A DNA stretch of 64,000 bases, taken from NCBI GenBank assembly GCA_015231885.1, contig JADGAT010000012.1, forward strand, positions 5,890-69,889, given 5' to 3'. Numbering within the stretch: the stretch's first letter is position 1; every line of letters starts with the position of its first letter. Below, one piece after another: positions 5,607 to 55,505 of the stretch. Position numbers and translations under genes: made by a program. The stretch comes from SAR324 cluster bacterium. GTDB taxonomy: Bacteria > SAR324 > NAC60-12. Below the pieces are notes generated by a model that was given only the letters and a program-made list of their open reading frames with translations, did no database searches and was not told the DNA's origin.

Positions 5607-5649
5607 GCAAAAAGCAGCACCTGCATTTATCCTCTGTTTTCTAACCCCC

Positions 5650-5670
5650 GGGAAGTCGCTGAGACTTCCC
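5650..5670 (+). terminator. Perfect 8-bp stem-loop (GGGAAGTC-gctga-GACTTCCC) 44 nt downstream of the 4272-5606 stop
   Basis: The inverted repeat was read directly. There is no strong U-tract after it (tgacccctt), so it may be a terminator or an RNA-stability hairpin. Confidence 0.4.
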
Positions 5671-5770
5671 TGACCCCTTGCGTATAATTTCTCCCAAAGC
5701 CGCCATTCGTGTAACCGAAGTAGTTGAGCATCTCTATAAATCTTGCCTCCAAAAAAAGTATTGAACAGCA

Positions 5771-9620: not shown

Positions 9621-9666
9621 CCATTTAAACTAAAAATTTTTTCGCCTCATCCGCTGATTAAACGCT

Positions 9667-11292: not shown

Positions 11293-11340
11293 CTAGGAGA
11301 TTCCTGCAGTCATGAAGCGAACCAATCTCTTTTGAGGGAA

Positions 11341-11757: not shown

Positions 11758-11936
11758 TTATCGAAAAAACTTTGAGTGATTCGTTAACTATATCAGATAA
11801 TTGAAGTTACCTGAGATGAAATATTCGAGGCCGTTGGTGGTGAAAGAACTTCAGAGTGGAAACAAAAATGAATCAAAGGAAAAAGTCGAGGAAGGATGAG
11901 CAATAGTTTTCTTAAATAGAGAAGAAAGCCCGCAGG

Positions 11937-38900: not shown

Positions 38901-39737
38901 TCCCTGGATTTCTTTGTTTGTTTTTCTTCCATAGCCTCCCTGTTTGCTTCAGCAGGAAAAGCGAATTATGCTGCAGGCAATGCTTTTATGGATGCGCTGA
39001 TGCACTTTCGCCGAAGCATAGGGCTGCCTGGACTGAGCATCAATTGGGGACCTTGGGCAGGGATCGGAATGGCTGCCGGACTGGATCAGCGTCTCCTGGA
39101 TCGATGGTATGAGCAGGGACTTGGAACAATTAAACCTGAAAAAGGTTTAGAAGCATTAGACCAGTTATTGCAGCAGGATCTTCCCCAAGTGTTGGCGATG
39201 GTGGCGGACTGGTCGAGGTTTTTAAGACAATTTCATGAAAGTGAGCAACAGTCCTTTTTTGAGGCATTCCAGCAGGAATTTGATACGGCATCTCTTGCGA
39301 AAGAATCTGCATTTCTGGAACAGCTGAAAGCATTTCCTCCTGAAAAACGCCGTTCTGAATTGGCGGCTCATATTTGCAGGCAGACAGCCAGGGTGCTCAA
39401 TATAGAAACGCCTGAAGAAATAGAACTGCAGGACAGTTTGTTTGATATGGGAATGGACTCCTTGACCGTCGTTGAATTGACAGGCAGTCTCGAAACGAGT
39501 TTGGGTCTCCCGCTTCCAGCAACAATATTGTTTGACTATCCAACTGTCGACACGCTCACTGATTATCTGACAGATGAAATCCTGTCATCTGAACACTCGA
39601 ACGGACCCTCAGCAGAATCAGACAGCGCTCAAAATAATTTTCCCCCTTCAGAGGAGGTAGAAAATCTCACTGAAGACGAACTGGGTACTCTACTGGATGA
39701 AAAGCTGGATAAATTTGATACGTGGATAGATTCATGA
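35919..39737 (+). CDS. Fatty acyl-AMP ligase (FAAL)-KR-ACP loading protein
   Basis: ATG at 35919 with an AAGGAAG SD (the track TTG at 35889 is less likely). FAAL hallmarks FWGCILGGFVPVPIS, LLLLTSGSTGLPKAV and YLQDGLLVLTGREKDDIIIHGVNY. KR Rossmann SYLITGGCGGLGLSVAQW (~38470) and YAAGNAF. ACP LFDMGMDSLTVVEL (~39435). Confidence 0.9.
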   Translation: MKEQSGKLAINHGESLKQEANAPVCLSEILERAARDSEKGLVFVQRDGSELFQSYQELLEDALRILAGLRKQGVKPSDKIILQVEGAKDYIPAFWGCILGGFVPVPISVSPTYQEINSTVNKLHNAWKMLGKPLVLTSTNLANDISSLSTLLKIEDFVVETVDHLRANDPEGKMYLSQPDDLTLLLLTSGSTGLPKAVMLSHRNLLSMTYGTGQKFNFSNSDVVLNWMPLDHVGAIVCLMLMGVTHGCQQIHMSTEYILQNPLRWLDLIDQHRATISWAPNFAFALLNDRAKEIKRHSWDLSSMNFLINAGEQIATKTIRTCLKLLRSHGLPTHATRPAFGMSETCSGITFSEGFSLEASSDEMSFVELGPPINGASIRIADDQEQIVREGTVGRLQVRGPSVTSGYYQNPERNQEVFTEDGWFTTGDLGYLQDGLLVLTGREKDDIIIHGVNYYSHEIESVVEEIDGVETSYTAACSVRVADSKTDQLAIFFNSPLGQEGDIKNLMKKIRGTLVKSFGINPEYLIPVGKETIPKTAIGKIQRSLLIKSFDAGEFDDVLRRYGVHREKAISKKVDAIPDSDSGKELFDTMMQDTKEDAGGLFYKIAWESAAKESDFSPSSEDAGPWLIFKDNGGIGSQLAEQLKRQGENFIMVSARQSYGRVESNHFHLNPDQPSDFRRLIRDGLGTSPCRGIVFLWSLDEEGRLEPPQFEMSQRLGWGAVLLLVQALAQFEGSCATGLWIVTRGAQSLTPGDFLHPRLCQASLWGMGRVIPQEHSNLSCVLLDLDPSEDPNEVQRLLEEMRSAGRETQIAFRQGNRQVARLLRYYPEGSRHKVGVSGSSDKNAWIDPEKSYLITGGCGGLGLSVAQWMVEQGAKFLVLTSRRGWPQKPSIQTQKINAGQSNPATYQEAKDVIIRMEEKGARVFVMQGDVSNSDEMSRILEEIQNSMPPLRGIFHAAGVVNDAVLLQQDVDRFRQVMLPKVQGSWNLHNLTKNISLDFFVCFSSIASLFASAGKANYAAGNAFMDALMHFRRSIGLPGLSINWGPWAGIGMAAGLDQRLLDRWYEQGLGTIKPEKGLEALDQLLQQDLPQVLAMVADWSRFLRQFHESEQQSFFEAFQQEFDTASLAKESAFLEQLKAFPPEKRRSELAAHICRQTARVLNIETPEEIELQDSLFDMGMDSLTVVELTGSLETSLGLPLPATILFDYPTVDTLTDYLTDEILSSEHSNGPSAESDSAQNNFPPSEEVENLTEDELGTLLDEKLDKFDTWIDS

Positions 39738-42700: not shown

Positions 42701-45523
42701 GCCTACATTTCCATGATACTGGCTGCTGCTCAATTAACTTTTGAGAGAAATCAGTGTGTACTCCAAGATGTACTTTTTCCGAATATTCTGATGATTTCAG
42801 AAGAGCAGGGGTATCCAGTGCAGCTAGTGCTGACCCCACAGTCAGAAAACAAGGGATCTTTCAGACTGATTAGCCTGACTGGTCATGATTCTCCAAATGA
42901 GCAAAGCTGGAGTATTCATGCTTCAGGAAAAATACTCACTGAAGAAAAGAAAGCAAGCAATTCTTCTCCAATTGTCTCCTTAGAGGAATTAAAGGCGCAC
43001 TGCCCCCGGGAAATGACTGTTGAGGATATTTACGAGACGAGGCGCAAGGGGCATATCGAAATTGGACCGGGTTTTCAATGGCTTGAAAAAATGTGGTGCG
43101 GAGATGGGGAAGCTATCTGCCAGATATCCCCTCCGCGGATACTCGACCAACAGGCAGTTCATCAGCTCCATCCAGGGTTGATTGAAACAAGTTTTGCTAC
43201 TTTGGCTATCCTGCTCTCTTCGAAACCTTTTGAAACATGGGTCCCTTTCAGAATCGAAGAAATTCATTTTCATCACCTTCCTATCAAAACACCTCTCTGG
43301 GCACATGGGTCGCTAAAACAGAGAAAAGATCTTCCAGAAGATCGGCAGATAGGGGATATCCGATTATTTGATCAAACAGGAAGAGTTTTTCTCGAATTCA
43401 CAGGTCTTGAACTGGGAAAAAGCAGCAGGGAAACTTTACTGCAGGAACTTCAAAAAGACATTTCAAAGTGCTTGTATTGCAGCAACTGGCAAGTCGGTGA
43501 AAGAAAGGCAAAATCCATTGTTTCCGGAAAGGAATCTCGTTCATGGCTGATCTTTACAGATGAAGGTGGAATAGGAGAGCAACTGGCAGAACAGTTAAAA
43601 GAGCGAGGGGACGATTGCTTCCTAGTTTCTGCTGATAAATCTTATCAAAAACTGGAAAATCAATGCATTTTCCTTGATCCAGAACACCCTGAGGGCTTTC
43701 TAAAATTGATACGGGAACATTCAGGGAGTTCCCATTTTCATGGAGTGGTCTATCTCTGGAGTTTAGATGATGGATATATTTCACCAGACCAAAATCTGTC
43801 GGGAAATTCCAAGAGTTCCAGTCTGCCGGACCAATCGTTCATCGAAAACGCGCAAAAGCTTGGTTGGGGGGGTGTGTTATACCTCGTGCAAGCCTTAATC
43901 GGCACCGAAGAAAACAGTCTGCCCCGTTTGTGGATTGTCACCCGGGGGACACAACCGGTTACTGCACAGAATTCTCCGGTGCGTATCAATCATACCCCAT
44001 TATGGGGCTTGGGGAGAGTCATTCATCAGGAACACCCGGAGCTCTCCTGCGTGCTTCTGGACCTTGACCCTGGGAAAGATTCTGGGGAGGTTCAACGTCT
44101 TTTTGAAGAATTATACTCCCCTGATGGAGAAACTCAAATTGCTTTTCGCCAGGGAACTCGTCAAGTTGCCAGATTAGAACGCCACATCCTTTCAGTGCCA
44201 AAGAAGGTGAAAACTGAGGACACTGAAGCATCCGGTAAAAAAGCTTTGATTGATCCGGATAGCAGCTATTTAATTACAGGAGGTTGTGGGGGTTTGGGAC
44301 TCAAAGTAGCTCAGTGGATGGTGAAGCAGGGGGCTAGATATTTGGTTCTAATCAGTCGTCGGGGAAGGAATCGAAAGGAAGCTCTGAATGCTGCGGTTGA
44401 TCCTGAAAATTCTTCTGTTCCGGTCTCTGAAGAAGCAGAGGAAGTGATTCATCGCCTGGAAGAAGGAGGAACAAAAATTTTAGTCCTCCAGGGAGATGTC
44501 TCTGAGCAGAAAGAAGTGGCCCGGGTCCTGGAAGAGATTCCAAGTTCCATGCCTCCTTTGCGTGGAATCATTCATGCGGCCGGGGTGATCAATGATGGGA
44601 TTTTAATGAAGCAAGATCTGGAACGCTTTCATCAAGTCATGCTCCCCAAGGTTCAGGGGAGCTGGAACCTGCATATTTTAACTCAAAGACTCTCTTTAGA
44701 CTTTTTCGTATGTTTTTCATCTATTGCCTCGATGTTTGGTTCGGTCGGACAAGGAAACTATGCGGCTGGCAATGCTTTCATGGATGCGTTGATGCATTAT
44801 CGCCGGGCATTGGGACTGCCTGGGTTGAGCATCAACTGGGGTCCCTGGACAGAGGTCGGAATTGCCGCAAGCCTCGATCAGCGTGAACAGGATCGATGGG
44901 CAGAACAAGGATTGGGATCAATCACTCCTGAAAAAGGCGTTGAAATTCTGGAGAAGTTGCTTCAAGAGAAAACAGTTCAGGTTGCAGTTTTGCCGGTAAC
45001 CTGGTCAAAATTCCTTCATAAATTCTATAAAAATATTGATCTCCCGTTTCTGGAAAATTTTCACGAGACGAAACAGAAACCGGTTGTGCCGGAAAAGCTT
45101 CAATTGCTGATCCAGCTGGACGAAGCACCCGAAAAAGAACGGCGCGCTTTGCTGGAAGACTACATTCATCAGCAAATTGCTCGGGTCTTGGGAATGAAAT
45201 CATCTGAATCGATCTCGTCGCGTGAACGATTGTTTGACGCAGGTATGGATTCCCTAATGGCCGTTGAAATAAGAGACCGGCTAGAAACCAATCTCGGTTT
45301 TTCACTTCGCTCAACCCTCTTGTTTGATTATCCTACCGTAGAATCCCTTGTTGACTTTCTCGCCGAGAAAATTCCTTCTTTAAGGGATATCCCAAACAAA
45401 AGTTTGAAGCATCTCGAGCAAGAGGCGAAACATTTCGATAGTTTGGATGAATTATCCCAAGATCAAATTGCAGAACAGCTCGCAAAAGAATTACAAATGA
45501 TTCAGGAAGAGAAAAATAAATGA
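39734..45523 (+). CDS. Type I PKS module KS-AT-DH-KR-ACP
   Basis: ATGA overlap with the upstream stop. KS DTACSSSL / EAHGSGT / NFGHLEPAAG. AT GHSLGEF with an unusual YSSHS motif. DH HPLIDKK...LKDHLVFEQIIVPGSAY. KR SYLITGGCGGLGLKVAQW / YAAGNAF. ACP LFDAGMDSLMAVEI. N- and C-terminal coiled-coil docking tails. Confidence 0.95.
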   Translation: MRRTSASSTNAERMKRALQALEKMQAKLTAVEGSGTEPIAIVGMGCRFPGGADSLNSYWNLLQDGVDAITEIPPDRWDIDSYYDPDPETPGKMYGRHGGFFGPIDEFDASFFGISPREANSLDPQQRLVLEVGWEALENANQVPEQLFGSSTGVFIGVLSFEHALVMLEKQKIPQTDLHFTTGGSLAGIAGRLSYSLSVTGPSMVVDTACSSSLVAIHLACQSLRNRECNMALTGGVNLLLAPQWPISFSKGRLLAPDGRCKSFDAAADGYVRGDGCGLIVLKRFSDAKADGDRILALIRGASVNQDGASGGLTVPSGLSQEKVIQQALAISGVKPEQVGYIEAHGSGTPLGDPIEVNALGKVFCGQARPFPLTIGSVKTNFGHLEPAAGIAGLIKTVLALQNEAIPPHLHFKTPNPRIPWDRFDIEVPTTLKPWPQGETPRIAGISGFGFTGTNAHVVLEEAPKFGINKREEHPSINTRGQNPENQVERPWHLLTLSAKSEEALGKLVERYQELLEQQKSLNLANLCFTANTRRSHFKHRLSVVSSSCSDLKEELTAFLDKSDISDYSRKSSEKTGSPRVVFLFTGQGAHYVKMGYQLYQTQPTFRQSLDRCNEILRPYLEKPLLEVLYPYSPTSDLDNTAYTQPALFALEYALAKLLQHWGVMPSAVIGHSLGEFVAACIAGVFSLEDGLKLVAERGRLIRSLPSNGEMVAVRADEASVEEVLAPYSQSISIAAINGPENTVISGERIAVEKVCNDFEAKGIKATRLNIPYSSHSALVYPVLDEFAKVAETVAYSTPKINLISNVTGESAGGEIATPEYWVRHLRQPVRFASSIKTLHQQGYELFVEIGPKPVLSGMARQSLPQGDKVWLPSLREGHGDWEQLLKSLGELYVRRIPVDWLNFDQDYQRRQVALPTYPFQRQRYWLDAPTPDNYQGSQSIPPKLHPLIDKKMQSPLLKESVFETDFNCKSIPFLKDHLVFEQIIVPGSAYISMILAAAQLTFERNQCVLQDVLFPNILMISEEQGYPVQLVLTPQSENKGSFRLISLTGHDSPNEQSWSIHASGKILTEEKKASNSSPIVSLEELKAHCPREMTVEDIYETRRKGHIEIGPGFQWLEKMWCGDGEAICQISPPRILDQQAVHQLHPGLIETSFATLAILLSSKPFETWVPFRIEEIHFHHLPIKTPLWAHGSLKQRKDLPEDRQIGDIRLFDQTGRVFLEFTGLELGKSSRETLLQELQKDISKCLYCSNWQVGERKAKSIVSGKESRSWLIFTDEGGIGEQLAEQLKERGDDCFLVSADKSYQKLENQCIFLDPEHPEGFLKLIREHSGSSHFHGVVYLWSLDDGYISPDQNLSGNSKSSSLPDQSFIENAQKLGWGGVLYLVQALIGTEENSLPRLWIVTRGTQPVTAQNSPVRINHTPLWGLGRVIHQEHPELSCVLLDLDPGKDSGEVQRLFEELYSPDGETQIAFRQGTRQVARLERHILSVPKKVKTEDTEASGKKALIDPDSSYLITGGCGGLGLKVAQWMVKQGARYLVLISRRGRNRKEALNAAVDPENSSVPVSEEAEEVIHRLEEGGTKILVLQGDVSEQKEVARVLEEIPSSMPPLRGIIHAAGVINDGILMKQDLERFHQVMLPKVQGSWNLHILTQRLSLDFFVCFSSIASMFGSVGQGNYAAGNAFMDALMHYRRALGLPGLSINWGPWTEVGIAASLDQREQDRWAEQGLGSITPEKGVEILEKLLQEKTVQVAVLPVTWSKFLHKFYKNIDLPFLENFHETKQKPVVPEKLQLLIQLDEAPEKERRALLEDYIHQQIARVLGMKSSESISSRERLFDAGMDSLMAVEIRDRLETNLGFSLRSTLLFDYPTVESLVDFLAEKIPSLRDIPNKSLKHLEQEAKHFDSLDELSQDQIAEQLAKELQMIQEEKNK

Positions 45524-48500
45524 ATAGAAATTCATCGTCCCCTGACTCTCAAGCCCTCATGAAAAAGGCTTTGCTTGAGCTTCGAGAAATGAAAGGTCAG
45601 CTCAATCATGTCGAGTATGCTAAAAAGGAGCCTATCGCCATTATTGGAATAGGATGCCGGTTTCCTGGAGGATCCAATAGCCCGGACGCTTTTTGGTCAC
45701 TGTTGCGCGAAGGTCAGGATGCCATAAGGGAGATTCCTTCTGACCGGTGGGATATTGAGGAATACTTTAATCCGGAGCCGGATGTTCCCGGAAAGATGTA
45801 CACCCGTTACGGCGGATTTTTGGACTCTGTAGATTCCTTTGATGGTCCATTCTTTGGGCTTTCTCCCCGAGAAACAGTCAATACTGACCCGCAGCACCGT
45901 TTGATCCTGGAAGTTGCCTGGGAAGCTCTGGAGCATGCCAATCAAGTTCCAGAACAATTATTTGGCAGTGCTACCGGAGTCTTTGTTGGTATGACAACCT
46001 TCGACTATTCCATTTGTTTGGTAAAACAAGGAGTGGCCAATATTGACACTTATTTTGCCATAGGAAACGGATTCAATTCAGCTTCCGGGAGACTTTCCTA
46101 TCTCCTTGGATTGACTGGACCCAGCATGGCGATCGATTCTGCCTGTTCTTCCTCTTTAACGACAGTTCATTTGGCTTGTCAGAGTTTGCGCAACAGGGAA
46201 TGCAATCTCGCCCTGGCAGGGGGAGTTAATTTAATGATTACTCCGGAGATCAATATCAATTTTTCCCGCACTCAAATGCTGTCCCCAGATTGTCGTTGTC
46301 ATACTTTTGACGCGGCTGCCAATGGCTATGTGCGAGGTGAAGGCTGTGGAATGCTCGTCCTCAAACGCCTCTCCGATGCAAAAGCGGATGGCGATCAGAT
46401 TTTGGCTCTGGTTCGAGGATCGGCAGTGAATCAGGATGGTGCCAGCGGAGGGTTAACCGTTCCCAGTGGACCTTCCCAGGAAAAAGTTTTTCGTCAGGCT
46501 CTGGAAAATGCCGGGGTTGATCCAGGCCGGGTCAGTTATATCGAAACCCACGGCACTGGGACTCCTCTTGGAGATCCGATTGAGGTCAGTGCTATTGGAA
46601 ACGCCTATTGCGAAGCTCCCCGGGAATCACCTTTGATGATTGGTTCGGTAAAAACAAATATTGGCCATCTGGAAGCAGCTGCTGGGGTTGTTGGTATGAT
46701 CAAGGTTGTTCTCGCTCTCCAAAATGAAAAAATTCCACCCCATTTGAATTTTAAAGAACCCAATCCTCATATTCCCTGGGAGGAAATTCAAGTGGAAGTT
46801 CCCACTGAACTGAAAGAGTGGCCCCGAAGGGAAAATCCCAGATTGGCAGGAATCAGTGGATTTGGCATCAGTGGCAGCAATGCCCATATTATCATGGAGG
46901 AAGCACCTTTAGAAAATCATGAAAAATCAGAATTGGCGACACAAACACCTGGGAATAAAGTAGAACGTCCACTGCACATCTTGACCCTTTCGGCCAAGAC
47001 TGAAGAAGCCTTACGCCAGCTGACCGAACGCTACAAAACCCTCTTGAGTGAAAGGAGCGATATAGATTTGGCGGACCTTTGCTATACAGCGAACAAATAC
47101 CGGTCTCGCTTCAATCATCGCATGAGTGTGGTCAGTTCCTCATGTGCTGATTTAAAGAAACAATTGGCCGATTTTTCAGAAGGCAAGGAAATTCCGAAAT
47201 CAATCCAGGGTCCTTATAAAGGTCTGAGCCAACCGAAGGTTGCCTTTTTATTCACGGGGCAAGGGGCTCAATACATCAACATGGGACGTCAACTATACGA
47301 AACTCAGTCAAATTTCCGCCAAACGATGGACCGTTGCGATGAAATACTACGTCCCTGCCTTCAGAAAAGATTGCTGGAAGTTCTCTACCCTCAAGAGGGC
47401 TCACAATCTGATTCTTCTGAAATAAATGAGACGGCCTATACACAGCCGGCATTATTCTCTCTGGAATATGCGTTATTTGAATTGTGGAACTCCTGGGGAA
47501 TCAAACCATCGGCAGTGATGGGGCATAGCGTGGGGGAATATGCAGCTGCGTGTGCAGCAGGAGTCTTTTCTCTGGAAGATGGATTGAAATTAATTGCCGA
47601 GCGGGGACGGTTGATGCAAGCCTTACCCCGCAATGGAGAAATGGCCGTTGTATTTGCCAAAGAGTCCCTTGTGGAAGAAGCCATTAAGCCTTATTCTGAG
47701 AAGGTTTCCATTGCTGCAATCAATGGTCCCAAAAATGTTGTTATATCTGGAGATCAGCAAAGGATAGAGGCCCTTTGCTCTGAACTGGGAAATCAGGAGA
47801 TCAGGACAAAGCGTTTAACCGTTTCTCATGCGTTTCATTCACCCCTGATGGACCCTATGTTGGCTGATTTTGAACAAGTTGCCGGAAAGGTGACATATTC
47901 TGCTCCATTCCTGAGCCTGGTTTCCAACGTGACCGGAAATTTTGTGTCAGATGAGGTCACGACCCCTGAATACTGGGTCCGACACCTACGTCAGGCAGTC
48001 AGGTTTTCAAACAGCATCGAGACCCTTCACCAACAGGGTTTTAAAACTTTTTTAGAAATTGGCCCCAAACCCGTTCTTCTGGGAATGGCCCGGCATTGTT
48101 TATCAGAGGGTGAAGAAAAATGGCTGCCGAGCCTACGTGAAAACCAGGACTGGCAGCAGCTTCTATTCACCTTGGGGGAATTATCGGCACAAGGAGTCTC
48201 TGTCAGCTGGTCGGAGTTTGAAAATGGATATCAGCGTCGCCGGGTGACTCTTCCCTCCTATCCGTTTCAACATCAGCGATACTGGTATGAACCGGTTGAA
48301 TTGGAAAACAAACAAGTTGTCCGCAATCAAAACACCCGTAATCATTATACCCATCCTTTGCTGGGGCAGCGTCTGCTTTCCGCATTGAAAGAAATTCAAT
48401 ATGAATCCAGGCTTTATGCAGATTCCCCGGGGTTTTTAAAAGATCATCGGGTTTTTCAAAGTGTGATTTTTCCTGCTGCAGCCTATCTGGAAATAGCATT

Positions 48501-51207
48501 GGCGGCAGGGAAATCGGTATTTAATTCAGAGAAAATGATGGTTGAAAAGATGAGTTTTTTCCAGCCATTGATTTTGCAGGAGAACGGAGGCAGCCTGGTT
48601 CAGTGTATTTTATTTCCAGATAAGAAGGATAGGTATTCTTTACAGCTCTCCAGCCTTAGGGAGGATGAAGAAAATGAGGTCCCCGTCTGGAACAACCATG
48701 CTTCCGGATCCATACTGAGAAATGAGGAGACTTTGAAACCGGCGAAAATGGATATAAAGGTTTTGCAGAGCAAGCTCACCGAAGAATTATCCGGAGAGGA
48801 TTATTACCAGGATTTTTTAAATGCTGATATTGATTATGGTCCAAGCTTTCGGGTAAACGAGCACCTTTGGTTCTCTAAAGGGGAGGTGTTAAGCAAAATG
48901 TCTCTGCCGGAAAATCTGCTTGCAGAGGCAAAGAACTATTTTTTTCATCCGGTTTTGCTGGATTCTGCTTTCCAATTGGGTTTCCAATTGATTAGAAGCA
49001 CATTTCCTGACCTCGATCATCAGGATCCTTATTTACCCGTGTACCTGGAAAATCTCCAGGTCTTTTGCAGGCCGGAAGAACAGATGTGGGGACAGATTCA
49101 GATACAATCCGATGACGACCCTCAACCCCAGACGGTCAAGGCTAATCTGAATCTGCTTGATGCTACCGGTACACTGCTCGCTCACGTGAAAGGGCTCACT
49201 TTTCAACGTGTAAATCGCGATCTGCTTTTGGAGGGGGTGAAGAAAAATTTAGACAATTTTCTTTATGAATTTGACTGGCAACCTCTCCCTTTCGAAGAAT
49301 TCTCGAAGTCCTCAGAACCTGAAGAATCGGGATACTGGGTCATATTTTCGGAGACCGACGGCCTCGGAACAAATTTATCCTCTTTGCTGAAAGATCGTGG
49401 TGAACGTTGCCTTCTGGTTTTTCCGAGCCAAACCGGAACAATCGAGAAAACGGGAGAAACGGACTATTATCTCAATCCGGCAGAACCTTCCGGTTTTCAA
49501 CAATTGTTTCAAGATATCTTGGAAAATAAACCCTGCCGAGGAATTGTTCATCTTTGGAGCTTAAGCAAAAATCAGCAAGCAGACATCTCTCTTCTTTCGT
49601 TGCAGAAAAATCAGATCCTGGGTTGTAGAAGCGTACTGCATTTGGTTCAGGCCCTTGAATCCAGGGAATGGTCGGAACCGCCCCGCCTCTGGTTGATTAC
49701 ACAGGGAGCTCAGCCTGTTGGGGAAGATGTGATTCCTTTACAAGTTCAACAATCACCTTTATGGGGATTGGGCAATGTGATTGCCCTGGAATACCCGGAA
49801 CTTCGCTGTACGCGCCTTGATTTGGACCCTTCTCCTGATGCAAATGTGCTGCAGTCATTATACAATACCCTCTGGCATCAGAATCAGGAAGAGCAAGCGG
49901 CATGGCGGCAGGGTGTATGTTATGTCCCACGCTTGGCACGGTGTGCTTCTCATGAATCTGAACATGAACCGGTTAAGATTTCAAATGCGGACTTTTCATC
50001 AGTTGATTTGCAATCGAAAATCTCCTCTGAAGGGACTTATTTGATCAGCGGAGGTTTGGGAGACCTGGGCTTATTGACCGCGGAATGGATGGTCAAGGAA
50101 GGAGCGAGGCATTTAGTGTTGGTAGGAAGAAGCCGGGTGAAACCTGAGGCCGGGAAAGTGATTGAAGAATTAGGGGGAAAAGGAATTGAAATCAGCGTGA
50201 TGCAGGGAGATATTTCTCTCGAAGATGATGTAAAAGGGATTCTGGAAGAAATTCAAAGTACCATGCCTTCCTTGAAAGGAGTTATTCATGCGGCGGGAGT
50301 ACTCGACGATGGAATGATAGCTCAGCAAAATTGGGAGCGATTTGAAAAAGTAATGCGGCCCAAAATCAATGGTGCCTGGAATTTACATCGGTTGACTGAA
50401 AACATCCCCCTTGATTTTTTCCTTATGTTTTCCTCGGCAGCATCTGTATTGGGAACCCTTGGACAAAGCAATTATGCTTCCGCCAATGCTTTCCTCGATG
50501 CTCTGGCTCACTATCGAAGAGCAAACGGACTTCCGGCTGCCTCAATCAATTGGGGGCCCTGGGCTGAAATTGGTATGGCTTCTCAAGAAGGAAATCAAAA
50601 AAACCGTTTTTCCAGCCAGGGGGTACAAAGTCTCAAACCTGAAGAAGGTTTGATTGTTCTCAAAAGAATTCTTCGTGACAATATTACTCAACCCTGTGTG
50701 ATTCACATTGAATGGTCCCAATTTATAAATAATGTGCCACACGAACGAAAATCAGGAATTTATTCAGATATAATTTCTGAAATTCAGAATAGCGGGATAG
50801 ATACAGATTCTGAAGCACAATCGGAAATTATCAGAAGTCTGAATGAAGCGATGTTTGGAGAGCGCCCACAGATGCTGCTTTCCTTTATTCAAGACCTGGC
50901 AGGAAATGTGATTGGAGAATCTCATTCTCTTCCTGAAGATGTTCCCTTAATGGAGCAAGGGTTTGATTCTCTGATGGCTGTTGATTTGAAAAACAGATTA
51001 AATAAGGCAATGAACACTAATTTACCGTCATCGTTGCTTTTTGAGTATCCAACATTGGAAAAAATAACAAATTTTCTGTTGGAAGAAATTCTTTCCTTTG
51101 AAGATCTGGATTTTGTTGATGATAATGGTGGAGAGGAAGGGGAGGACAATTCAGCTGAGGCGCTTTTAGAAGAAATAGATACTTTGTTACAGACACAGAA
51201 CAATTGA
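45520..51207 (+). CDS. Type I PKS module KS-AT-DH-KR-ACP
   Basis: ATGA overlap. KS DSACSSSL / ETHGTGT / NIGHLEAAAG. AT GHSVGEY and VSHAFHS (malonyl-type). DH HPLLGQ...LKDHRVFQSVIFPAAAY. KR TYLISGGLGDLGLLTAEW / YASANAF. ACP LMEQGFDSLMAVDL. Acidic C-terminal docking tail. Confidence 0.95.
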   Translation: MNRNSSSPDSQALMKKALLELREMKGQLNHVEYAKKEPIAIIGIGCRFPGGSNSPDAFWSLLREGQDAIREIPSDRWDIEEYFNPEPDVPGKMYTRYGGFLDSVDSFDGPFFGLSPRETVNTDPQHRLILEVAWEALEHANQVPEQLFGSATGVFVGMTTFDYSICLVKQGVANIDTYFAIGNGFNSASGRLSYLLGLTGPSMAIDSACSSSLTTVHLACQSLRNRECNLALAGGVNLMITPEININFSRTQMLSPDCRCHTFDAAANGYVRGEGCGMLVLKRLSDAKADGDQILALVRGSAVNQDGASGGLTVPSGPSQEKVFRQALENAGVDPGRVSYIETHGTGTPLGDPIEVSAIGNAYCEAPRESPLMIGSVKTNIGHLEAAAGVVGMIKVVLALQNEKIPPHLNFKEPNPHIPWEEIQVEVPTELKEWPRRENPRLAGISGFGISGSNAHIIMEEAPLENHEKSELATQTPGNKVERPLHILTLSAKTEEALRQLTERYKTLLSERSDIDLADLCYTANKYRSRFNHRMSVVSSSCADLKKQLADFSEGKEIPKSIQGPYKGLSQPKVAFLFTGQGAQYINMGRQLYETQSNFRQTMDRCDEILRPCLQKRLLEVLYPQEGSQSDSSEINETAYTQPALFSLEYALFELWNSWGIKPSAVMGHSVGEYAAACAAGVFSLEDGLKLIAERGRLMQALPRNGEMAVVFAKESLVEEAIKPYSEKVSIAAINGPKNVVISGDQQRIEALCSELGNQEIRTKRLTVSHAFHSPLMDPMLADFEQVAGKVTYSAPFLSLVSNVTGNFVSDEVTTPEYWVRHLRQAVRFSNSIETLHQQGFKTFLEIGPKPVLLGMARHCLSEGEEKWLPSLRENQDWQQLLFTLGELSAQGVSVSWSEFENGYQRRRVTLPSYPFQHQRYWYEPVELENKQVVRNQNTRNHYTHPLLGQRLLSALKEIQYESRLYADSPGFLKDHRVFQSVIFPAAAYLEIALAAGKSVFNSEKMMVEKMSFFQPLILQENGGSLVQCILFPDKKDRYSLQLSSLREDEENEVPVWNNHASGSILRNEETLKPAKMDIKVLQSKLTEELSGEDYYQDFLNADIDYGPSFRVNEHLWFSKGEVLSKMSLPENLLAEAKNYFFHPVLLDSAFQLGFQLIRSTFPDLDHQDPYLPVYLENLQVFCRPEEQMWGQIQIQSDDDPQPQTVKANLNLLDATGTLLAHVKGLTFQRVNRDLLLEGVKKNLDNFLYEFDWQPLPFEEFSKSSEPEESGYWVIFSETDGLGTNLSSLLKDRGERCLLVFPSQTGTIEKTGETDYYLNPAEPSGFQQLFQDILENKPCRGIVHLWSLSKNQQADISLLSLQKNQILGCRSVLHLVQALESREWSEPPRLWLITQGAQPVGEDVIPLQVQQSPLWGLGNVIALEYPELRCTRLDLDPSPDANVLQSLYNTLWHQNQEEQAAWRQGVCYVPRLARCASHESEHEPVKISNADFSSVDLQSKISSEGTYLISGGLGDLGLLTAEWMVKEGARHLVLVGRSRVKPEAGKVIEELGGKGIEISVMQGDISLEDDVKGILEEIQSTMPSLKGVIHAAGVLDDGMIAQQNWERFEKVMRPKINGAWNLHRLTENIPLDFFLMFSSAASVLGTLGQSNYASANAFLDALAHYRRANGLPAASINWGPWAEIGMASQEGNQKNRFSSQGVQSLKPEEGLIVLKRILRDNITQPCVIHIEWSQFINNVPHERKSGIYSDIISEIQNSGIDTDSEAQSEIIRSLNEAMFGERPQMLLSFIQDLAGNVIGESHSLPEDVPLMEQGFDSLMAVDLKNRLNKAMNTNLPSSLLFEYPTLEKITNFLLEEILSFEDLDFVDDNGGEEGEDNSAEALLEEIDTLLQTQNN

Positions 51208-51212
51208 GCAGT

Positions 51213-52259
51213 ATGAATACTAAACTTAGCGGTGTGGCGATTCGCTCTATAGCGACCGCTGTTCCCAAACAAGATTTTGATTTGACAGAACTTTACGGGG
51301 TTTATGGTACAGATGATGTTGACCGAATCATGGCGTTGAATGGAATTACCCATATTCGAACAGCTCCGGAAGGCATGTGTAGCTCTGATTTCTGCGAAGC
51401 AGCAGCTCGATTGATTATGGCGGAAGAAAGTACTGCCAATATTGATGGGATTGTTTTTGTCTCTCAGACCCCGGATTATATTTTGCCGGCTACCAGTGCA
51501 GTTCTTCAGCATCGCTTAGGGCTCTCCAAAGACACGGTTATTTTCGACCTCAACAGTGGTTGTCCGGGCTACATTTATGGCCTCTATCAAGCTTCATTAC
51601 TGGTAGCTTCAGGCGCTTGTACTTCAGTGCTGGTTTGTGTCGGAGATGTGATTACCCGATATGTAAACCAGCTGGATCGCTCTTCCCAGATGGTATTTGG
51701 CGATGGAGGAAGCGCAACTTTGGTGGAGCGTGGCTCCGGAGAAATTGCATTCGGGTTCAGAACAGACGGATCGGGGGGAAAACATTTGATTATTCCTGCA
51801 GGAGGATGTCGCCACCCGATCACTGAGGATACGGGGATGGTATCTGTGCAGAGCGACGGTAACATGCGCTCTGATGAAGATATTTTCATGGATGGGCTGG
51901 AGGTGATGAACTATGCAGTAAGAGAAGTCCCCCCTATTATTGAAAAGCTGCTTGAGCAGATGGGTTGGCAGCAGTCGGAAGTGGGAACATTTGGTTTTCA
52001 TCAGGCCAACCGATTTATGCTTGATAACTTAAGAAAAATTATGAGGCTTCCCAAAGACAAGGTTCCTGTCACAATGGAGAAATTGGGGAATACCGGTTCT
52101 GCTTCTATTCCTCTGATGCTGGCTGAGGAGCGTGAGCGGCTTTCAACAGAAAATAGATTGGAAAAATCAATTCTGTGCGGGTTTGGTGTCGGTATGTCCT
52201 GCTCGGCAGCCGCGTTGGATCTTTCTCAAACTAAAATCTGGGATTTTCTCGAAATTTAG
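51213..52259 (+). CDS. KAS III (FabH-like) ketosynthase or acyltransferase
   Basis: ATG at 51213 (MNTKLSGVAIRSIATAVPK, a FabH-type start); the track TTG is at 51204. Active-site context DLNSGCPGY. HQANRFM. GNTGSASIP. Confidence 0.85.
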   Translation: MNTKLSGVAIRSIATAVPKQDFDLTELYGVYGTDDVDRIMALNGITHIRTAPEGMCSSDFCEAAARLIMAEESTANIDGIVFVSQTPDYILPATSAVLQHRLGLSKDTVIFDLNSGCPGYIYGLYQASLLVASGACTSVLVCVGDVITRYVNQLDRSSQMVFGDGGSATLVERGSGEIAFGFRTDGSGGKHLIIPAGGCRHPITEDTGMVSVQSDGNMRSDEDIFMDGLEVMNYAVREVPPIIEKLLEQMGWQQSEVGTFGFHQANRFMLDNLRKIMRLPKDKVPVTMEKLGNTGSASIPLMLAEERERLSTENRLEKSILCGFGVGMSCSAAALDLSQTKIWDFLEI

Positions 52260-52284
52260 CAATAATTTGATAGTCAATATAGGT

Positions 52285-53148
52285 ATGTATTTCCCTGATT
52301 TTCTCTTCCGGAAGATCACACTTCCTTTTTTGAAAAAGAGCAGCATCCTGTTACGAGGAATTATCAACATCCAGTCTGAAGCTTTGAAATGGATGGATTT
52401 GTCTTCAAGCTTGCTGGAATTTGTTCCGCGCCCGCAAGATATTTTTATCGTCACGTACCCAAGATCCGGAACCACCTTGATGCAGATGATGCTCTACCAA
52501 TTGAGCACGGGTGGAAAGATCGATTTTTCCCACATAAACGAAGTAGTTCCCTTCTTCGACCGACTTTTGACTTATCAAATTCAAAGTGTGCAAGATCTTG
52601 ATAATTTGCCTAATCCTCGAATTTTTAAAAGCCATTTGAGTTACCAGAATGTCCCGAAAGGCCCATGTCGATACATTTACATAGAAAGAAACGGGAAAGA
52701 TGTGGCAGTTTCATATTTTCATTTTCATGTCTCGCATCTCGGATTTCAGGGCACTTTTGATGAATTTTTCGATCTATTCATGAAAGGGAGGGTGATGTAT
52801 GGTTCATGGTTCAGGCACATTGCAGAATGGCAGAAACATCAGGATGATCCTCATGTATTATATCTCAAATATGAAGATCTCAAAAAAGATCTCAAAACAG
52901 CTCTGTATCAGATAATCGATTTTTGCCAGTTGGATGTTCCTCAAGTACACATGCCAAAAATTATCAGGCAATGCAGCTTTGAGTTCATGAAAGAGCATGA
53001 AAATAAGTTTGACCATATTTCCGGAATGGTTTGGGAGAAAGGCTATCAAAAAAATGCATTCATCCGGGAAGGCCGGATTGGAAGCGGGACACAGCTGTTA
53101 ACGCCTGCTCAAATAGAGCTCTTTGAGCGAACATATTCACAAATATAA
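52285..53148 (+). CDS. Cytosolic-type (SULT-family) PAPS-dependent sulfotransferase
   Basis: 5'-PSB loop TYPRSGTT. 3'-PB motif RNGKDVAVSYFHF. The start is uncertain: Met at 52285 (preferred, just after the FabH-like stop) or 52393. The track start at 52132 overlaps the upstream gene and was rejected. Confidence 0.75.
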   Translation: MYFPDFLFRKITLPFLKKSSILLRGIINIQSEALKWMDLSSSLLEFVPRPQDIFIVTYPRSGTTLMQMMLYQLSTGGKIDFSHINEVVPFFDRLLTYQIQSVQDLDNLPNPRIFKSHLSYQNVPKGPCRYIYIERNGKDVAVSYFHFHVSHLGFQGTFDEFFDLFMKGRVMYGSWFRHIAEWQKHQDDPHVLYLKYEDLKKDLKTALYQIIDFCQLDVPQVHMPKIIRQCSFEFMKEHENKFDHISGMVWEKGYQKNAFIREGRIGSGTQLLTPAQIELFERTYSQI

Positions 53149-53150
53149 AA

Positions 53151-53459
53151 ATGGAGAAAGTTGTCCTCATGCATGAAAAAATCGTGGATATCATTGTTGG
53201 AGAATCGAAAGAAGTGAATAAAAAACTGAAAAACAAAATTTCTGTAGAACTAAGGGAAGCGGCCCCGCTTTTTGGGGAAAACGGAATTTTGGATTCGATC
53301 GCCTTAGTCACATTACTGGTTGCTGTCGAACAATCAGTGGAAGACGAATTCGATTTTCCTGTAATTTTGGCAGATGAAAAAGCAATGTCCCAAAAAAACA
53401 GTCCATACCAATCGATTGGTGCATTAGCCCAATATGTGGGCAGCCTGTTGAAGGAATAA
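53151..53459 (+). CDS. Stand-alone acyl carrier protein
   Basis: 102 aa. Phosphopantetheine-attachment context GILDSIALVTLL. Acidic helix II. Confidence 0.8.
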   Translation: MEKVVLMHEKIVDIIVGESKEVNKKLKNKISVELREAAPLFGENGILDSIALVTLLVAVEQSVEDEFDFPVILADEKAMSQKNSPYQSIGALAQYVGSLLKE

Positions 53460-53463
53460 GCTC

Positions 53464-54168
53464 ATGGAAAACCTTCCATTAGTCATGATTACCGGAACAA
53501 GAAAAGGGATTGGAAAATATCTCGCTCACTATTATGTAGAAAAAGGGTTTCAGGTCATTGGCTGCAGTCGTAGTTCGGTTGATTATGAACTGGCAAATTA
53601 CCAACATTTTTGTCTTGATGTTATAAATGAATTTGCAGTGAAAAAAATGTTTATTGATGTTCGCCGAACGCATGGACGTTTAGACGTATTGATCAACAAT
53701 GCGGGGATTGCCTCTATGAATCATGTGCTGTCAACCCCGATGAACACTGTACGCAAGATTTTTGATACCAATGTGGCAGGAACTTTTCTGTTTTGCCGGG
53801 AAGCTGCAAAATTGATGCAAATTAAGCAGTACGGGCGCATTGTCAATTTTTCTACGGTAGCCACCCCTTTGAAACTCGAAGGAGAGGCGGTCTATGCTGC
53901 CTCAAAAGCCGCGATTATTACGCTTACCGAAATTTTGGCAAGGGAATTAGCTCCCTTGGGAATCACAGTCAATGCGGTGGGGCCGACTCCGGTGGAAACC
54001 GATTTGATTCGTTCAGTTCCCCAGGAAAAAATTGATAATCTGCTCTCACGACAGGCGATCTCGAGACTGGGAAAATTTGAGGATATTGCCAATGTAATAG
54101 ATTTTTTCATTCAAGAAAAAAGTGAATTTGTGACAGGACAGAACATTTACCTGGGCGGAGTTTCGTGA
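53464..54168 (+). CDS. Short-chain dehydrogenase/reductase (FabG-like 3-oxoacyl-ACP reductase family)
   Basis: TGTRKGIGK (TGxxxGxG). NNAG. Catalytic YAASK (YxxxK). 234 aa. Confidence 0.85.
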   Translation: MENLPLVMITGTRKGIGKYLAHYYVEKGFQVIGCSRSSVDYELANYQHFCLDVINEFAVKKMFIDVRRTHGRLDVLINNAGIASMNHVLSTPMNTVRKIFDTNVAGTFLFCREAAKLMQIKQYGRIVNFSTVATPLKLEGEAVYAASKAAIITLTEILARELAPLGITVNAVGPTPVETDLIRSVPQEKIDNLLSRQAISRLGKFEDIANVIDFFIQEKSEFVTGQNIYLGGVS

Positions 54169-55505
54169 GGATTGAGGAATTACAACAAAGATTGGAGCAA
54201 TATTCCGAGATTGAAGCAATTATCCATAAGCACCAGCTCTTTTCCTATAGGGACCTTCTCAGATTGACTGAGTCGTGGTTTCAACGTTTAGCGCAAAACA
54301 AGATTGAACCCGGAACCGTTGTAGCAGTAACGTCAGATTATTCTGCAGATGCAATTGCCTTGATGGCTGCATTGATTCTCAATAAAAACATTGCAGTCCC
54401 TTTGACTCCGTTAGCAAAAACTCAATTCAATGAATATTTTAAAACTTCATATACCCAGTCAATCATTGATTTAACCCAAACCACATTCCGCATTTCTGAC
54501 AGGAAGAATGACCCCTTGCAAAACGATCTGCTCAGGAACTTGATTGAACAGCAGCACCCGGGGTTGATCCTTTTTACCTCCGGTTCTACTGGACAAGCAA
54601 AGGCGGTTGTTCATGATTTTGAAAAACTACTAACAAAATTTACTCATGCGAATAAAGGATACAGAAGCCTCGTTTTCCTGATGTTTGACCATATTGCAGG
54701 AATCGATTCGTATTTTTACTCTCTTTATAGCGGAGGAACGATGATCTTTCCTGTTTCGAGGCTTCCCAAAGAAATCTGCGGCCTCATTGAAAAACACAGA
54801 GTTGAAGTCCTGCCCGCATCGCCCACTTTTCTCAATCTGCTGCTGCTTTCAGGAGAACATCTAAGACACGATCTCGATTCTCTGAAAATAATCACTTTCG
54901 GTTCAGAAAGGGCCCCTCAATCCTTGTTAAAACGCTTGAAAAACAATTTTCCTCAAGTCAGGCTGGTACAAAAATATGGTCTGACAGAATTAGGGTCTCC
55001 TTCTTCCAAATCGATGGAAGCAGACGCCTCGTGGTTAAAAATCGACAGTCCTCGCTTCAAAACAAAAATTATTAACAAAAGGCTGCATATCAAATCAGAT
55101 GCTGCCATGCTGGGGTATCTCAACGCTCCGGATCCATTTACCGGAGACGGTTGGTTTGATACAGGAGACACCGTCGAAGTGAAGGGAGAATATCTTCGCA
55201 TACTTGGCAGAGAGTCAGAGATCATCAACGTGGGAGGAGAAAAGGTTTTTCCAGTGGAAGTGGAAGAAGTGATTCAGATGATGCCGGGGGTCGAAGATGT
55301 GGTGGTCAGCGGAGTTCCTTATCCAATCACAGGACAAATTGTTAAAGCTTCCGTCCAGCTCGAGACCAAGGAAACTCTTTCAGAATTTCGCCAGAGGATG
55401 CGGGATTTCTGTGAAGAAAAATTACCTCGTTTTAAGATTCCTCAGAAAGTAACTTTGGCTAAAGATTCGTTGCATGGCGATCGATTTAAAAAAATGAGAG
55501 GATAA
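54165..55505 (+). CDS. Short AMP-dependent ligase (acyl-CoA/acyl-ACP synthetase-like adenylating enzyme)
   Basis: GTG start overlapping the SDR stop (GTGA). FTSGSTGQAKAV, YGLTELG, GDGWFDTGD, GRESEIINVGGEKVFPVEVE. The last motif is the acyl-CoA-synthetase-type A8, not the NRPS-type. Confidence 0.8.
   Translation: MRIEELQQRLEQYSEIEAIIHKHQLFSYRDLLRLTESWFQRLAQNKIEPGTVVAVTSDYSADAIALMAALILNKNIAVPLTPLAKTQFNEYFKTSYTQSIIDLTQTTFRISDRKNDPLQNDLLRNLIEQQHPGLILFTSGSTGQAKAVVHDFEKLLTKFTHANKGYRSLVFLMFDHIAGIDSYFYSLYSGGTMIFPVSRLPKEICGLIEKHRVEVLPASPTFLNLLLLSGEHLRHDLDSLKIITFGSERAPQSLLKRLKNNFPQVRLVQKYGLTELGSPSSKSMEADASWLKIDSPRFKTKIINKRLHIKSDAAMLGYLNAPDPFTGDGWFDTGDTVEVKGEYLRILGRESEIINVGGEKVFPVEVEEVIQMMPGVEDVVVSGVPYPITGQIVKASVQLETKETLSEFRQRMRDFCEEKLPRFKIPQKVTLAKDSLHGDRFKKMRG

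Follow-up and report, generated by a model that had tools for sequence, protein, structure and literature searches.

Why does a cluster of megasynthase genes in an uncultivated marine SAR324 bacterium enclose a sulfotransferase among four other small genes of acyl-carrier type, and what would these five genes supply to the assembly line around them? The genes occupy positions 51213–55505 of a 64,000-nucleotide stretch of DNA (SAR324 cluster bacterium, assembly GCA_015231885.1, contig JADGAT010000012.1, positions 5,890 to 69,889); this whole stretch is referred to as the window, and its coordinates are counted from its first nucleotide. An initial annotation had described the five genes as a set that activates an acid onto a dedicated acyl carrier protein (ACP), extends it once, reduces the product, and sulfates a hydroxyl. 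We find that the cassette genes belong together and have been co-inherited over phyla-level distances. Our leading but tentative interpretation is that they form a self-contained, horizontally portable module that would make a sulfated hydroxy-acyl thioester on its own ACP and feed it into the nonribosomal peptide synthetase (NRPS)/polyketide synthase (PKS) line.

Gene Content and Organization of the Cassette

The list of open reading frames (ORFs) places five plus-strand genes in a row that fill 51213–55505 exactly. These genes and their immediate neighbors are as follows.

45520–51207, + strand: type I PKS module KS-AT-DH-KR-ACP, upstream of the KAS III gene (Pfam)
51213–52259, + strand: KAS III-like condensing enzyme, 348 amino acids (aa) (Pfam ACP_syn_III, 2.3e-18, and ACP_syn_III_C, 6.4e-21)
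52285–53148, + strand: free-standing sulfotransferase (ST) of the cytosolic SULT family, dependent on 3'-phosphoadenosine 5'-phosphosulfate (PAPS), 287 aa (Pfam Sulfotransfer_1, PF00685, 2.6e-55)
53151–53459, + strand: dedicated carrier protein (ACP), 102 aa, with N- and C-terminal extensions and the serine in an LDSI motif
53464–54168, + strand: classical short-chain dehydrogenase/reductase (SDR), a FabG-like ketoreductase, 234 aa (adh_short_C2, 1.9e-46)
54165–55505, + strand: short adenylating enzyme of the acyl-CoA/ACP-ligase type, 446 aa (AMP-binding, 6.3e-36, and AMP-binding_C)
55518–57152, + strand: first module of the downstream NRPS, a condensation (C) domain of the D-donor (DCL) type and a thiolation (T) domain, lacking an adenylation (A) domain (Pfam)
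57153–61670, + strand: remainder of the downstream NRPS, C-A(Tyr)-T-E, where E is an epimerization domain (Pfam)

All five gene identities given in the initial annotation were correct as judged by Pfam and NCBIfam, and the operon-like packing that it described was also found, with spacings of −4 to 25 nucleotides (nt). The gap between the PKS and the KAS III gene is 5 nt, followed by 25 nt between KAS III and ST, 2 nt between ST and ACP, and 4 nt between ACP and SDR; the SDR and ligase genes overlap by 4 nt, and 12 nt separate the ligase from the NRPS. The wording of "2-3 nt gaps or overlaps" was thus roughly right, except at the 25-nt gap between KAS III and ST. The KAS III gene starts at ATG 51213, the alternative TTG 51204 overlapping the PKS stop. 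For the ST, ATG 52285 is preferable to the start of the 272-aa NCBI record (P0001), because the extra residues KITLPFLKK are kept in homologues that are 62–71% identical. Neither promoter-like sites (12, compared to 9.1±3.0 in shuffled sequence) nor terminator-like sites (3, compared to 4.3±2.0) are in excess within the span of the cassette, and its GC content is that of its flanks. Among database records, a SAR324 metagenome-assembled genome (MAG) has an ST that is 100% identical over 95% of the query as well as a ligase that is 100% identical, and a fragment is found in GCA_002753255.1.

Recurrence of the Gene Set in Other Loci

Synteny was assessed from the contexts of ST and ligase homologues together with a tblastn survey of 97 loci. 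The cassette genes recur jointly in at least 10 independent metagenomic loci from SAR324 and from Desulfobacterales/Magnetomorum, in some cases within NRPS/PKS clusters and in others alone with no NRPS nearby. The arrangements are listed below.

Window: KAS III-ST-ACP-SDR-ligase, between PKS and NRPS
L005/L010 (second SAR324 MAG): PKS-KAS III-ST-ACP-SDR-ligase, ~7 kb of Uma2, peptidase, and toxin-antitoxin genes, then the same NRPS
L002/L003 (TARA/ENA contig; ST 71%, ligase 76% identical): ST-ACP-SDR-ligase-NRPS
L015 (Ca. Magnetomorum): beta-lactamase-family gene, KAS III-ACP-SDR, an inserted PDDEXK-like ORF, ligase, and an NRPS of C-T-C-A-T-C/E organization
L016, L019, L020, L022, L024, and L028: ST-KAS III-ACP-SDR-ligase, all in one orientation
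L018: ST-KAS III-ACP-SDR without ligase, back-to-back with a set of type II thioesterase, O-methyltransferase, and PKS genes

Because a syntenic gene set recurs on many unrelated contigs, the five-gene grouping is far beyond what chance would produce. The junction between PKS and KAS III found in the window is itself preserved in L005. When non-redundant loci with enough flanking sequence were counted, at least two cassette genes lay within 9 kb of the ST in 9 of the 13 loci whose STs are at least 53% identical, compared to 1 of 26 for STs below 53%. The four exceptions in the first group are L021, which is at a contig end; L008 of Magnetomorum, which has the cassette on the same contig; L025, a reduced ST-KAS III-DUF697 locus; and L007, where the ST has a PKS-carbamoyltransferase context. 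In the last of these (a Desulfobacterales MAG, 3761–12300) the ST, 62% identical, is found between carbamoyltransferase and aminotransferase genes after a KS-ACP-aminotransferase PKS, and belongs to another pathway that uses an ST of this group.

Four of the free-standing cassettes (L016, L019, L020, and L024) have a DUF697 gene after the ligase, no C domain nearby, and no NRPS within 10 kb; that of L020 adjoins a housekeeping Rnf operon. DUF697 genes are found beside the cassette or its ST in L008, L016, L019, L020, L024, L025, and L028, and DUF697 and Band_7/SPFH proteins adjoin the cassette in most free-standing loci (the set noted being L016, L018–L022, L024, L025, and L028). Selfish or mobile genes lie within or just after the cassette in several loci: Uma2 endonuclease, peptidase, HicAB, and VapBC genes at 12068–18843 of L005, the PDDEXK-like ORF at 9075–9896 of L015, and a 3-kb insertion between SDR and ligase in L028. 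The boundaries of the cassette appear to be insertion hot spots.

The Sulfotransferase Resembles Cytosolic SULT Enzymes

The score of the ST with PF00685 is 188 bits (E 2.6e-55), the gathering cut-off being 22. Its 5'-phosphosulfate-binding loop TYPRSGTT, the catalytic His of KSHL, and the 3'-phosphate-binding motif RNGKDVAVS are invariant across 16 homologues, in agreement with the initial annotation that this is a genuine PAPS-type enzyme with intact motifs; the two motifs on which that call was based, TYPRSGTT and RNGKDVAVSYFHF, are both present, and the ST motifs align with SULT1 structures. A single-sequence search of the PDB gave mammalian SULT1 enzymes as the best matches (2e-45), with the STs of CurM and olefin synthase (OLS) absent at E≤0.01. 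A profile built from 16 ST sequences matched SULT1B1 at 7e-65, retinol dehydratase at 7e-35, and StaL and Teg12/14 at 1e-8 to 1e-12; the CurM ST (4GBM) and OLS ST (4GOX) were reached only at E 0.033 and 0.1, or ~16 bits. These comparisons, which the initial annotation had proposed, place the ST in the cytosolic SULT type and not with the CurM/OLS type. Neither was an ACP-ST-TE fusion (TE, thioesterase) seen: the ST is a separate 287-aa ORF, and the upstream PKS ends in an ACP. The description of the ST as free-standing and without an adjacent TE stands.

It had also been suggested that the ST might act on the phenol of D-Tyr or the hydroxyl of Thr in the peptide. Both residues are reasonable expectations for this cluster, since the neighboring A domain has a Tyr code and the E domain after it would yield D-Tyr, and a Thr-activating A domain (DFWNIGMVHK) is found elsewhere in the cluster. 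As acceptors for the ST they are disfavored, the ST lineage occurring with the cassette in L016, L019, L020, and L024, which lack an NRPS. Because this lineage is retained with free-standing cassettes in the absence of a peptide synthetase, the ST substrate would be supplied by the cassette itself, and what the ST sulfates is most likely the product of the cassette, not a peptide Tyr or Thr.

The Condensing Enzyme Is a KAS III Distinct from Housekeeping FabH

The KAS III scores below the curated NCBIfam cut-offs for FabH (202 bits compared to 249 for TIGR00747, and 169 compared to 292 for PRK09352), by which measure it is not a housekeeping FabH. Its best solved relatives are two uncharacterised FabH paralogues of Burkholderia (3GWA, 1e-65; 4EFI, 1.5e-58), with OleA structures (3ROW, 3S21, 4KU5) at about 1e-11 to 1e-12. 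The Cys-His-Asn triad (equivalents of C112, H244, and N274, numbered by E. coli FabH) is invariant among 11 cassette orthologues. All 11 also have Phe in place of FabH R249, a hydrophobic residue in place of R36, and Leu in place of F87. Since R249 is the ACP-docking Arg of FabH and is Phe in all KAS III orthologues, use of a private carrier fits. The triad argues for a true decarboxylating condensing enzyme and not the esterifying Cys-His-Asp type, of which MupB is an example as a KAS III-like acyltransferase (PMC10098928), CerJ being another enzyme of that class. A role as esterifying acyltransferase or shuttle was considered and is disfavored, the Asn being present in all orthologues and the enzyme being retained in free-standing cassettes.

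ACP, SDR, and Ligase Form the Oldest Core

The cassette ACP has no match to the Pfam PP-binding model and matches the NCBIfam DltC model weakly (0.0018). The serine of its (D/N/S)-S-I motif is invariant, its tail ADEKAMSQKNSP shows strong conservation across seven inspected orthologue alignments, NCBI labels the Bacillus orthologues as ACP, and the gene always adjoins that for SDR and/or ligase in the loci found. The SDR scores ~160 bits against NCBIfam FabG models, under their cut-offs. Its TGxxxGIG, NNAG, and YxxxK motifs are conserved, and the position of the catalytic Ser (STVA/SSVA motif) is Thr in every orthologue in which the residue was seen, including L017, L018, and L027. The best solved relatives of the ligase are FadD13 (1.5e-26), 4-chlorobenzoate-CoA ligase (5e-24), and MenE (5e-23); malonyl-CoA synthetase is among its other solved relatives. 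In its A4 motif, MFDHIAG, the His aligns with the conserved His of acyl-CoA ligases (FadD13, 4-chlorobenzoate ligase); DltA-like loading of an amino acid was rejected on this alignment, where His and not an equivalent of Asp235 is found. The ligase family is large (6912 matches at E≤1e-20), with members of 445–455 aa; a scan of species-representative genomes with patterns derived from the ligase alignment returned 5 loci only, these patterns being too narrow.

The ACP-SDR-ligase trio also occurs without KAS III or ST. In three glycan loci it is found in the same gene order, followed by a hexapeptide-repeat (LpxA/D-like) acyltransferase.

L017 (Spirulina subsalsa), 8383–12127: trio and hexapeptide acyltransferase
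L100 (ENA contig of 2.4 Mb), 7996–11030: trio and hexapeptide acyltransferase
L101 (Poribacteria), 5630–8580: trio and hexapeptide acyltransferase

The ligase is 49% identical in Spirulina and 59% identical in Poribacteria. These loci carry GT2 and PMT_2 glycosyltransferases, with DegT in L017 and L101, and the trio there probably acylates a sugar, presumably an amino sugar, with a hydroxyacyl group. Elsewhere the trio precedes a C-A-T NRPS in a cluster that ends with an ST (L027). On a plasmid of Rhizobium sp. T1470 (L099, 9995–17614) it is combined with a large alpha/beta hydrolase and a CmlS-like FADH2-dependent halogenase, which hints at a version of this core for halogenated acyl-ACP. It is also present in Desulfobacterales HSG2 (L102), where the neighbors are uninformative, and megaplasmids of the Bacillus cereus group have the ACP-ligase pair alone. 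Two other matches were set aside. The 45%-identical matches on Bacillus thuringiensis plasmids, considered for a link to zwittermicin, belong to an unrelated ACP-ligase pair with hydrolase genes, and the ACP match on Tistrella pTM3 is the C-terminal domain of a 755-aa ORF, not part of a trio.

ACP-SDR-ligase is the oldest core of the cassette, an ancient unit that would deliver an acyl group to acyltransferases. SDR orthologues are 73–82% identical in cassette loci and, among loci without KAS III, 64% identical in L017 and 74% in L027. Because of these identities the SDR substrate is probably the ligase-loaded acyl group itself rather than a product of KAS III. The strict order of loading, extension, reduction, and sulfation in the initial annotation is weakened as a result, and an order like that of mupirocin priming becomes possible. 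The order is also not secure on gene content, with ST-ACP-SDR-ligase found without an adjacent KAS III in L002 and L027 and the trio found without KAS III in L017, L100, and L101.

The Downstream NRPS Opens with an A-less Module

The downstream NRPS has the organization C-T-C-A-T-E. Pfam matches for Condensation, PP-binding, and Condensation follow one another at its N-terminus and leave no room for an A domain in module 1, a feature that the initial annotation overlooked; the first T domain (T1) carries its GGHS motif at residue 506. The first C domain (C1) matches D-donor C domains best (TycB1, 7e-117; BacC; SrfA-C, 8e-98), compared to 2e-34 for the LCL domain TycC6. The A domain has the Stachelhaus residues DASTIAAVCK, which we take to be a Tyr code from published codes, and the E domain has the motifs HHLLVDGISW, ESHGRG, and FNYLGQ. 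The sole other E-terminated protein in the window is the NRPS at 26636–32254, whose A domain residues are DFWNIGMVHK (Thr). Because C1 is of the D-donor type and this is the only other E-terminated protein, the assembly order likely runs from D-Thr to the C1-T1 module, carrying a unit X, and then to D-Tyr. The placement of the cassette "between the PKS and the last NRPS" is thus correct for gene order, but it does not hold biosynthetically: the donor for the DCL-type C1 is expected to come from the NRPS at 26636–32254.

This A-less NRPS is found downstream of the ligase in four loci that represent three lineages, directly in the window, L002, and L015, and after the ~7-kb insertion in L005. 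For this reason we propose that X comes from the cassette; apart from the cassette ligase, the window encodes no free-standing adenylating enzyme. In biosynthetic terms the cassette is next to the A-less NRPS module and not to the PKS, and T1 is, by gene adjacency, the probable recipient of the cassette product.

Proposed Function of the Cassette

The core idea of the initial annotation, a dedicated acyl-ACP tailoring set that includes sulfation, is reasonable in the light of these results. In the mechanism that we tentatively favor, the ligase would adenylate a small non-amino carboxylic acid and load it onto the 102-aa ACP, and the SDR would generate a hydroxyl on the ACP-bound acyl group. 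The KAS III would add one C2 unit, either before the reduction, as in the initial annotation, or after it, with the tailored acyl-ACP as primer. Before the acyl group leaves the carrier, the ST would sulfate the hydroxyl made by the SDR, with PAPS as donor. The product would then pass to the A-less C-T module, whose gene starts 12 nt after that of the ligase; there the D-donor-type C domain would join it to the peptide ending in D-Thr before the next module adds D-Tyr. Whereas the enzyme families, intact catalytic residues, operon-like packing, co-inheritance, and A-less module are direct observations, the substrates, the order of steps, the timing of sulfation on the carrier, and delivery to T1 are predictions of this mechanism.

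Several observations weigh against it. A unit X at T1 needs a nucleophile for C1, and a simple 3-sulfooxy-acyl group has none. The missing nucleophile would have to be a second hydroxyl or an amine, or be provided by an aryl acid with a phenol or by loss of the sulfate; otherwise T1 could be loaded not by the cassette but by a neighboring A domain, as occurs in other A-less modules. The DUF697 and Band_7 neighbors of free-standing cassettes suggest a role without any NRPS. KAS III is not adjacent to the ST in L027 or in L002, the closest relative (ST 71%), where the gene upstream of the ST encodes an unrelated 272-aa protein, and in Magnetomorum the ST (L008) lies ~15 kb upstream of the cassette beside a different ACP sub-cluster. 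Finally, a neighbor-joining tree put the cassette-linked STs in two neighboring groups and did not resolve them as a single clade, so their monophyly is not claimed.

A broader formulation, which we offer as a possibility that is more doubtful still, is that of a mobile "sulfo-acyl-ACP" module spread among uncultivated marine and sediment bacteria (SAR324 and Desulfobacterales, including multicellular magnetotactic forms), which would combine an animal-type SULT with a private ligase, ACP, SDR, and KAS III. Such a module would either deliver a sulfated hydroxy-acid via an A-less module or use sulfate as a leaving group on the carrier.

Alternative Explanations

The alternative that survives best, though we consider it unlikely, is mupirocin-like priming followed by sulfation. 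In the priming of mupirocin, MupQ adenylates, MupS is an SDR, MacpD is an ACP, and the ketosynthase MmpF carries out extension (PMC10098928). By analogy, the ligase would put the carboxylate of malonyl- or succinyl-CoA on the ACP, the SDR would reductively remove the CoA thioester to leave an omega-hydroxyacyl-ACP (e.g., 3-hydroxypropionyl), the ST would sulfate the primary alcohol, and the KAS III would extend the chain. The cassette matches the composition and adjacency described for MupQ/MupS/MacpD(+MmpF), and for TmlQ/S/TacpD of thiomarinol, in that separate genes for an adenylating enzyme, an SDR, and an ACP with extensions adjoin that for a ketosynthase within an assembly-line cluster; like the mupirocin set, it would, on the function that we propose from sequence, yield a hydroxylated acyl-ACP building block (PMC10098928). 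The trios without KAS III in L017/L100/L101 and L027 are consistent with this explanation, as the SDR substrate probably does not come from KAS III, and two dicarboxylate enzymes, MenE and malonyl-CoA synthetase, are among the solved relatives of the ligase. However, the closest of those relatives are FadD13 and 4-chlorobenzoate ligase and not malonyl-CoA synthetase, and the SDR resembles an ordinary FabG-type ketoreductase. The mupirocin set also lacks a sulfotransferase, uses the KAS I-like MmpF instead of a KAS III, and has a different gene order, and it was compared with the cassette at the level of its published description.

It is somewhat less likely again that sulfate acts as a leaving group, the ST activating the hydroxyl for elimination or displacement, which would leave an enoyl group, a ring, or a terminal alkene in a mature product free of sulfate. 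This would be convergence with CurM/OLS by means of a SULT enzyme. Sulfation followed by elimination is established chemistry for the ST-TE pairs of CurM and OLS, and the ACP-ST-TE of CurM and olefin synthase is a precedent for PAPS-dependent sulfonation of a carrier-bound beta-hydroxyacyl group in a PKS/NRPS pathway. Elimination also occurs within the SULT family, as shown by retinol dehydratase, which matches the ST profile, and loss of the sulfate would resolve the nucleophile conflict at T1. The cassette ST differs in being a free-standing SULT-family enzyme, not fused to an ACP or TE and lacking significant similarity to the CurM/OLS STs. A type II thioesterase lies beside the cassette in L018 and one is encoded in the window at 2958–3734, but in the window the ST has no TE next to it or fused with it, and free-standing cassettes such as L020 have no hydrolase partner. 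An ST that retains its sulfate and one that eliminates it are not separated by sequence.

The free-standing loci raise the question of whether the cassette was captured in this cluster while serving a separate process, for example the transfer of a sulfated hydroxy-acyl group to a glycan or a membrane lipid. We regard this as improbable. It would account for cassettes located beside Rnf genes and DUF697/Band_7 membrane proteins in the absence of an NRPS, and for the presence of four DUF697 genes and one Band_7 gene in the window; the commonest context of the trio is also a glycan locus with a hexapeptide acyltransferase. The glycan-locus sets of Spirulina subsalsa, Poribacteria, and the ENA contig are orthologous to ACP-SDR-ligase, but have no KAS III, ST, or NRPS, and conversely no glycan-type acyltransferase is found in the window. 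In the window and L005/L010, where there is sequence on both sides, the cassette lies between megasynthase genes of the same strand. The ligase directly precedes the same A-less NRPS in L002/L003 and L015, on the strand of the other megasynthase genes of the cluster.

Late tailoring of the peptide by the ST, at the D-Tyr phenol or Thr hydroxyl in the manner of the glycopeptide STs, with the other four genes making an unsulfated hydroxy-acyl unit, is in our judgment very improbable. StaL and Teg12–14 are likewise free-standing PAPS-dependent enzymes of NRPS clusters, but they act on finished peptide scaffolds, have no acyl-ACP cassette, and are only distant relatives of the ST (1e-8 to 1e-12). 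The best solved ST relatives are SULT1 enzymes that sulfate phenols and tyrosine esters, a Tyr-specific A domain is encoded directly downstream, and the Magnetomorum ST is not adjacent to its cassette. Similarity to animal SULT1 enzymes, however, says little about a bacterial acceptor, and the ST lineage is co-inherited with the cassette where the NRPS, and hence any Tyr or Thr module, is absent.

An OleA/OleD/OleC-like cassette for a beta-lactone or olefin (head-to-head condensation of the thiolase type and a reduction, with an AMP-ligase homologue closing the ring) is barely credible in spite of a superficially alike composition of FabH-like enzyme, reductase, and AMP-ligase-family enzyme, and was rejected on the PDB ranking of the KAS III relatives (1e-12 for OleA, compared to 1e-65 for FabH paralogues), the SDR being moreover a 234-aa classical FabG-like enzyme where OleD-type enzymes are extended SDRs, and a dedicated ACP being always present, with the ligase-ACP pair also found without KAS III.

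Comparison with Other Characterized Systems

The cassette combines known kinds of system, namely priming cassettes, A-less modules supplied in trans, and assembly-line sulfation. The priming modules of type II PKSs (ZhuH/ZhuG/ZhuC of R1128 and DpsC/D) and PqsA/PqsD resemble it in that a Cys-His-Asn KAS III produces a non-standard beta-ketoacyl starter in partnership with either a dedicated carrier or a ligase that activates the acid. The cassette differs from them in loading by an AMP-ligase instead of an acyltransferase, in its location in an NRPS/type I PKS cluster, in the added ST, and in the replacement of Arg249 by Phe. In the SyrB1/SyrB2/SyrC system, which feeds SyrE, and in CmaA/CmaD/CmaE, a building block is tailored on a free-standing carrier and then used by an A-less C-T module. 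The SyrB1/SyrC and CmaA/D/E systems use an alpha/beta-hydrolase shuttle and amino-acid substrates, whereas the cassette has an acyl-type ligase and no shuttle was identified. No characterized system of this five-gene composition was found in the libraries and papers searched, and literature searches on the cassette, on sulfated NRPS units with KAS III, on SAR324 clusters, and on A-less modules returned nothing specific.

Other Features of the Window

A TE domain is absent from every megasynthase of the window, and two of the NRPS proteins end in E. Candidates for release of the product are an S12/beta-lactamase-family, D-peptidase-like protein at 4272–5606 (alkaline D-peptidase, 8e-36), the type II TE at 2958–3734, and an alpha/beta hydrolase at 32324–33472 on the minus strand. 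In Magnetomorum (L015, 4835–6661) the beta-lactamase-family gene lies directly upstream of KAS III. An offloading cyclase of the PBP type is a possibility. A SurE-like role for the protein at 4272–5606 was not confirmed: its best solved relatives are D-stereospecific S12 peptidases, with no SurE chain among the matches.

In the NRPS at 26636–32254, the Thr A domain is split between A2 and A3 by ~560 aa (about 27740–29430). The insertion consists of a radical-SAM domain and then a B12-binding domain, a permuted order in which radical-SAM comes first, and its best NCBIfam matches are the B12-dependent radical-SAM proteins ApyD, PhpK, and KedN5, of which PhpK and KedN5 are named as methyltransferases. 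We know of no described A domain that is interrupted by a radical-SAM enzyme. The same protein opens (26636–27400) with the C-terminal half of a C domain only (Pfam positions 188–456), and the preceding protein ends in a complete C domain; the half domain could be a remnant, one part of a split domain, or an error of assembly.

Further genes of the window are listed below.

35115–35870, + strand: DUF697 membrane protein heading the operon, which runs from about 35 to 64 kb (Pfam DUF697, 4.8e-11), with an N-terminal H-x3-C-x2-C motif (HVNRCESC) as in zinc-binding anti-sigma factors
34096–34893, − strand: weakly ECF-sigma-like gene, divergent to the DUF697 gene
35889–39737: loading module A(acyl-ligase-like)-KR-T, predicted to make a 2-hydroxyacyl starter
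61696–62898, after the downstream NRPS: single-subunit protein like 2-hydroxyacyl-CoA dehydratase (HadB-like, 3.5e-48; Pfam HGD-D), with no activator ATPase seen
62955–63740: Sfp-type phosphopantetheinyl transferase belonging to the cluster
437–958 (− strand), 1282–1773, and 14912–15736: DUF697 genes, four in the window together with that at 35115–35870
12916–13980, − strand: the one Band_7 gene of the window

The divergent DUF697 and ECF-like genes may, from their sequence features, be a regulatory pair.

Significance

The main interest of the cassette lies in its portability, its animal-type ST, and its uncultivated hosts. Bacterial peptides and polyketides seldom contain sulfated acyl units, and to our knowledge the only well-understood assembly-line sulfotransferases are the fused domains of CurM and OLS. 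Here a sulfotransferase is part of a discrete five-gene unit, small enough for cloning and reconstitution, that spans deep-branching uncultivated lineages both in and out of assembly-line clusters. If the proposed function is correct, the cassette would provide a genome-mining handle for sulfated lipopeptides and depsipeptides in ocean metagenomes and, possibly, a plug-in unit for bringing sulfated building blocks into NRPS lines by way of A-less modules. If sulfate serves instead as a leaving group, the cassette would represent a second independent invention of CurM-like activation chemistry. The proposal would also give a first function to the large family of 445–455-aa ligases with ACP and SDR partners, which is also widespread in glycan loci. 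We know of no natural product from SAR324, and our literature searches found none; the cassette, if it functions as proposed, would be the first chemical lead for the natural products of this group.

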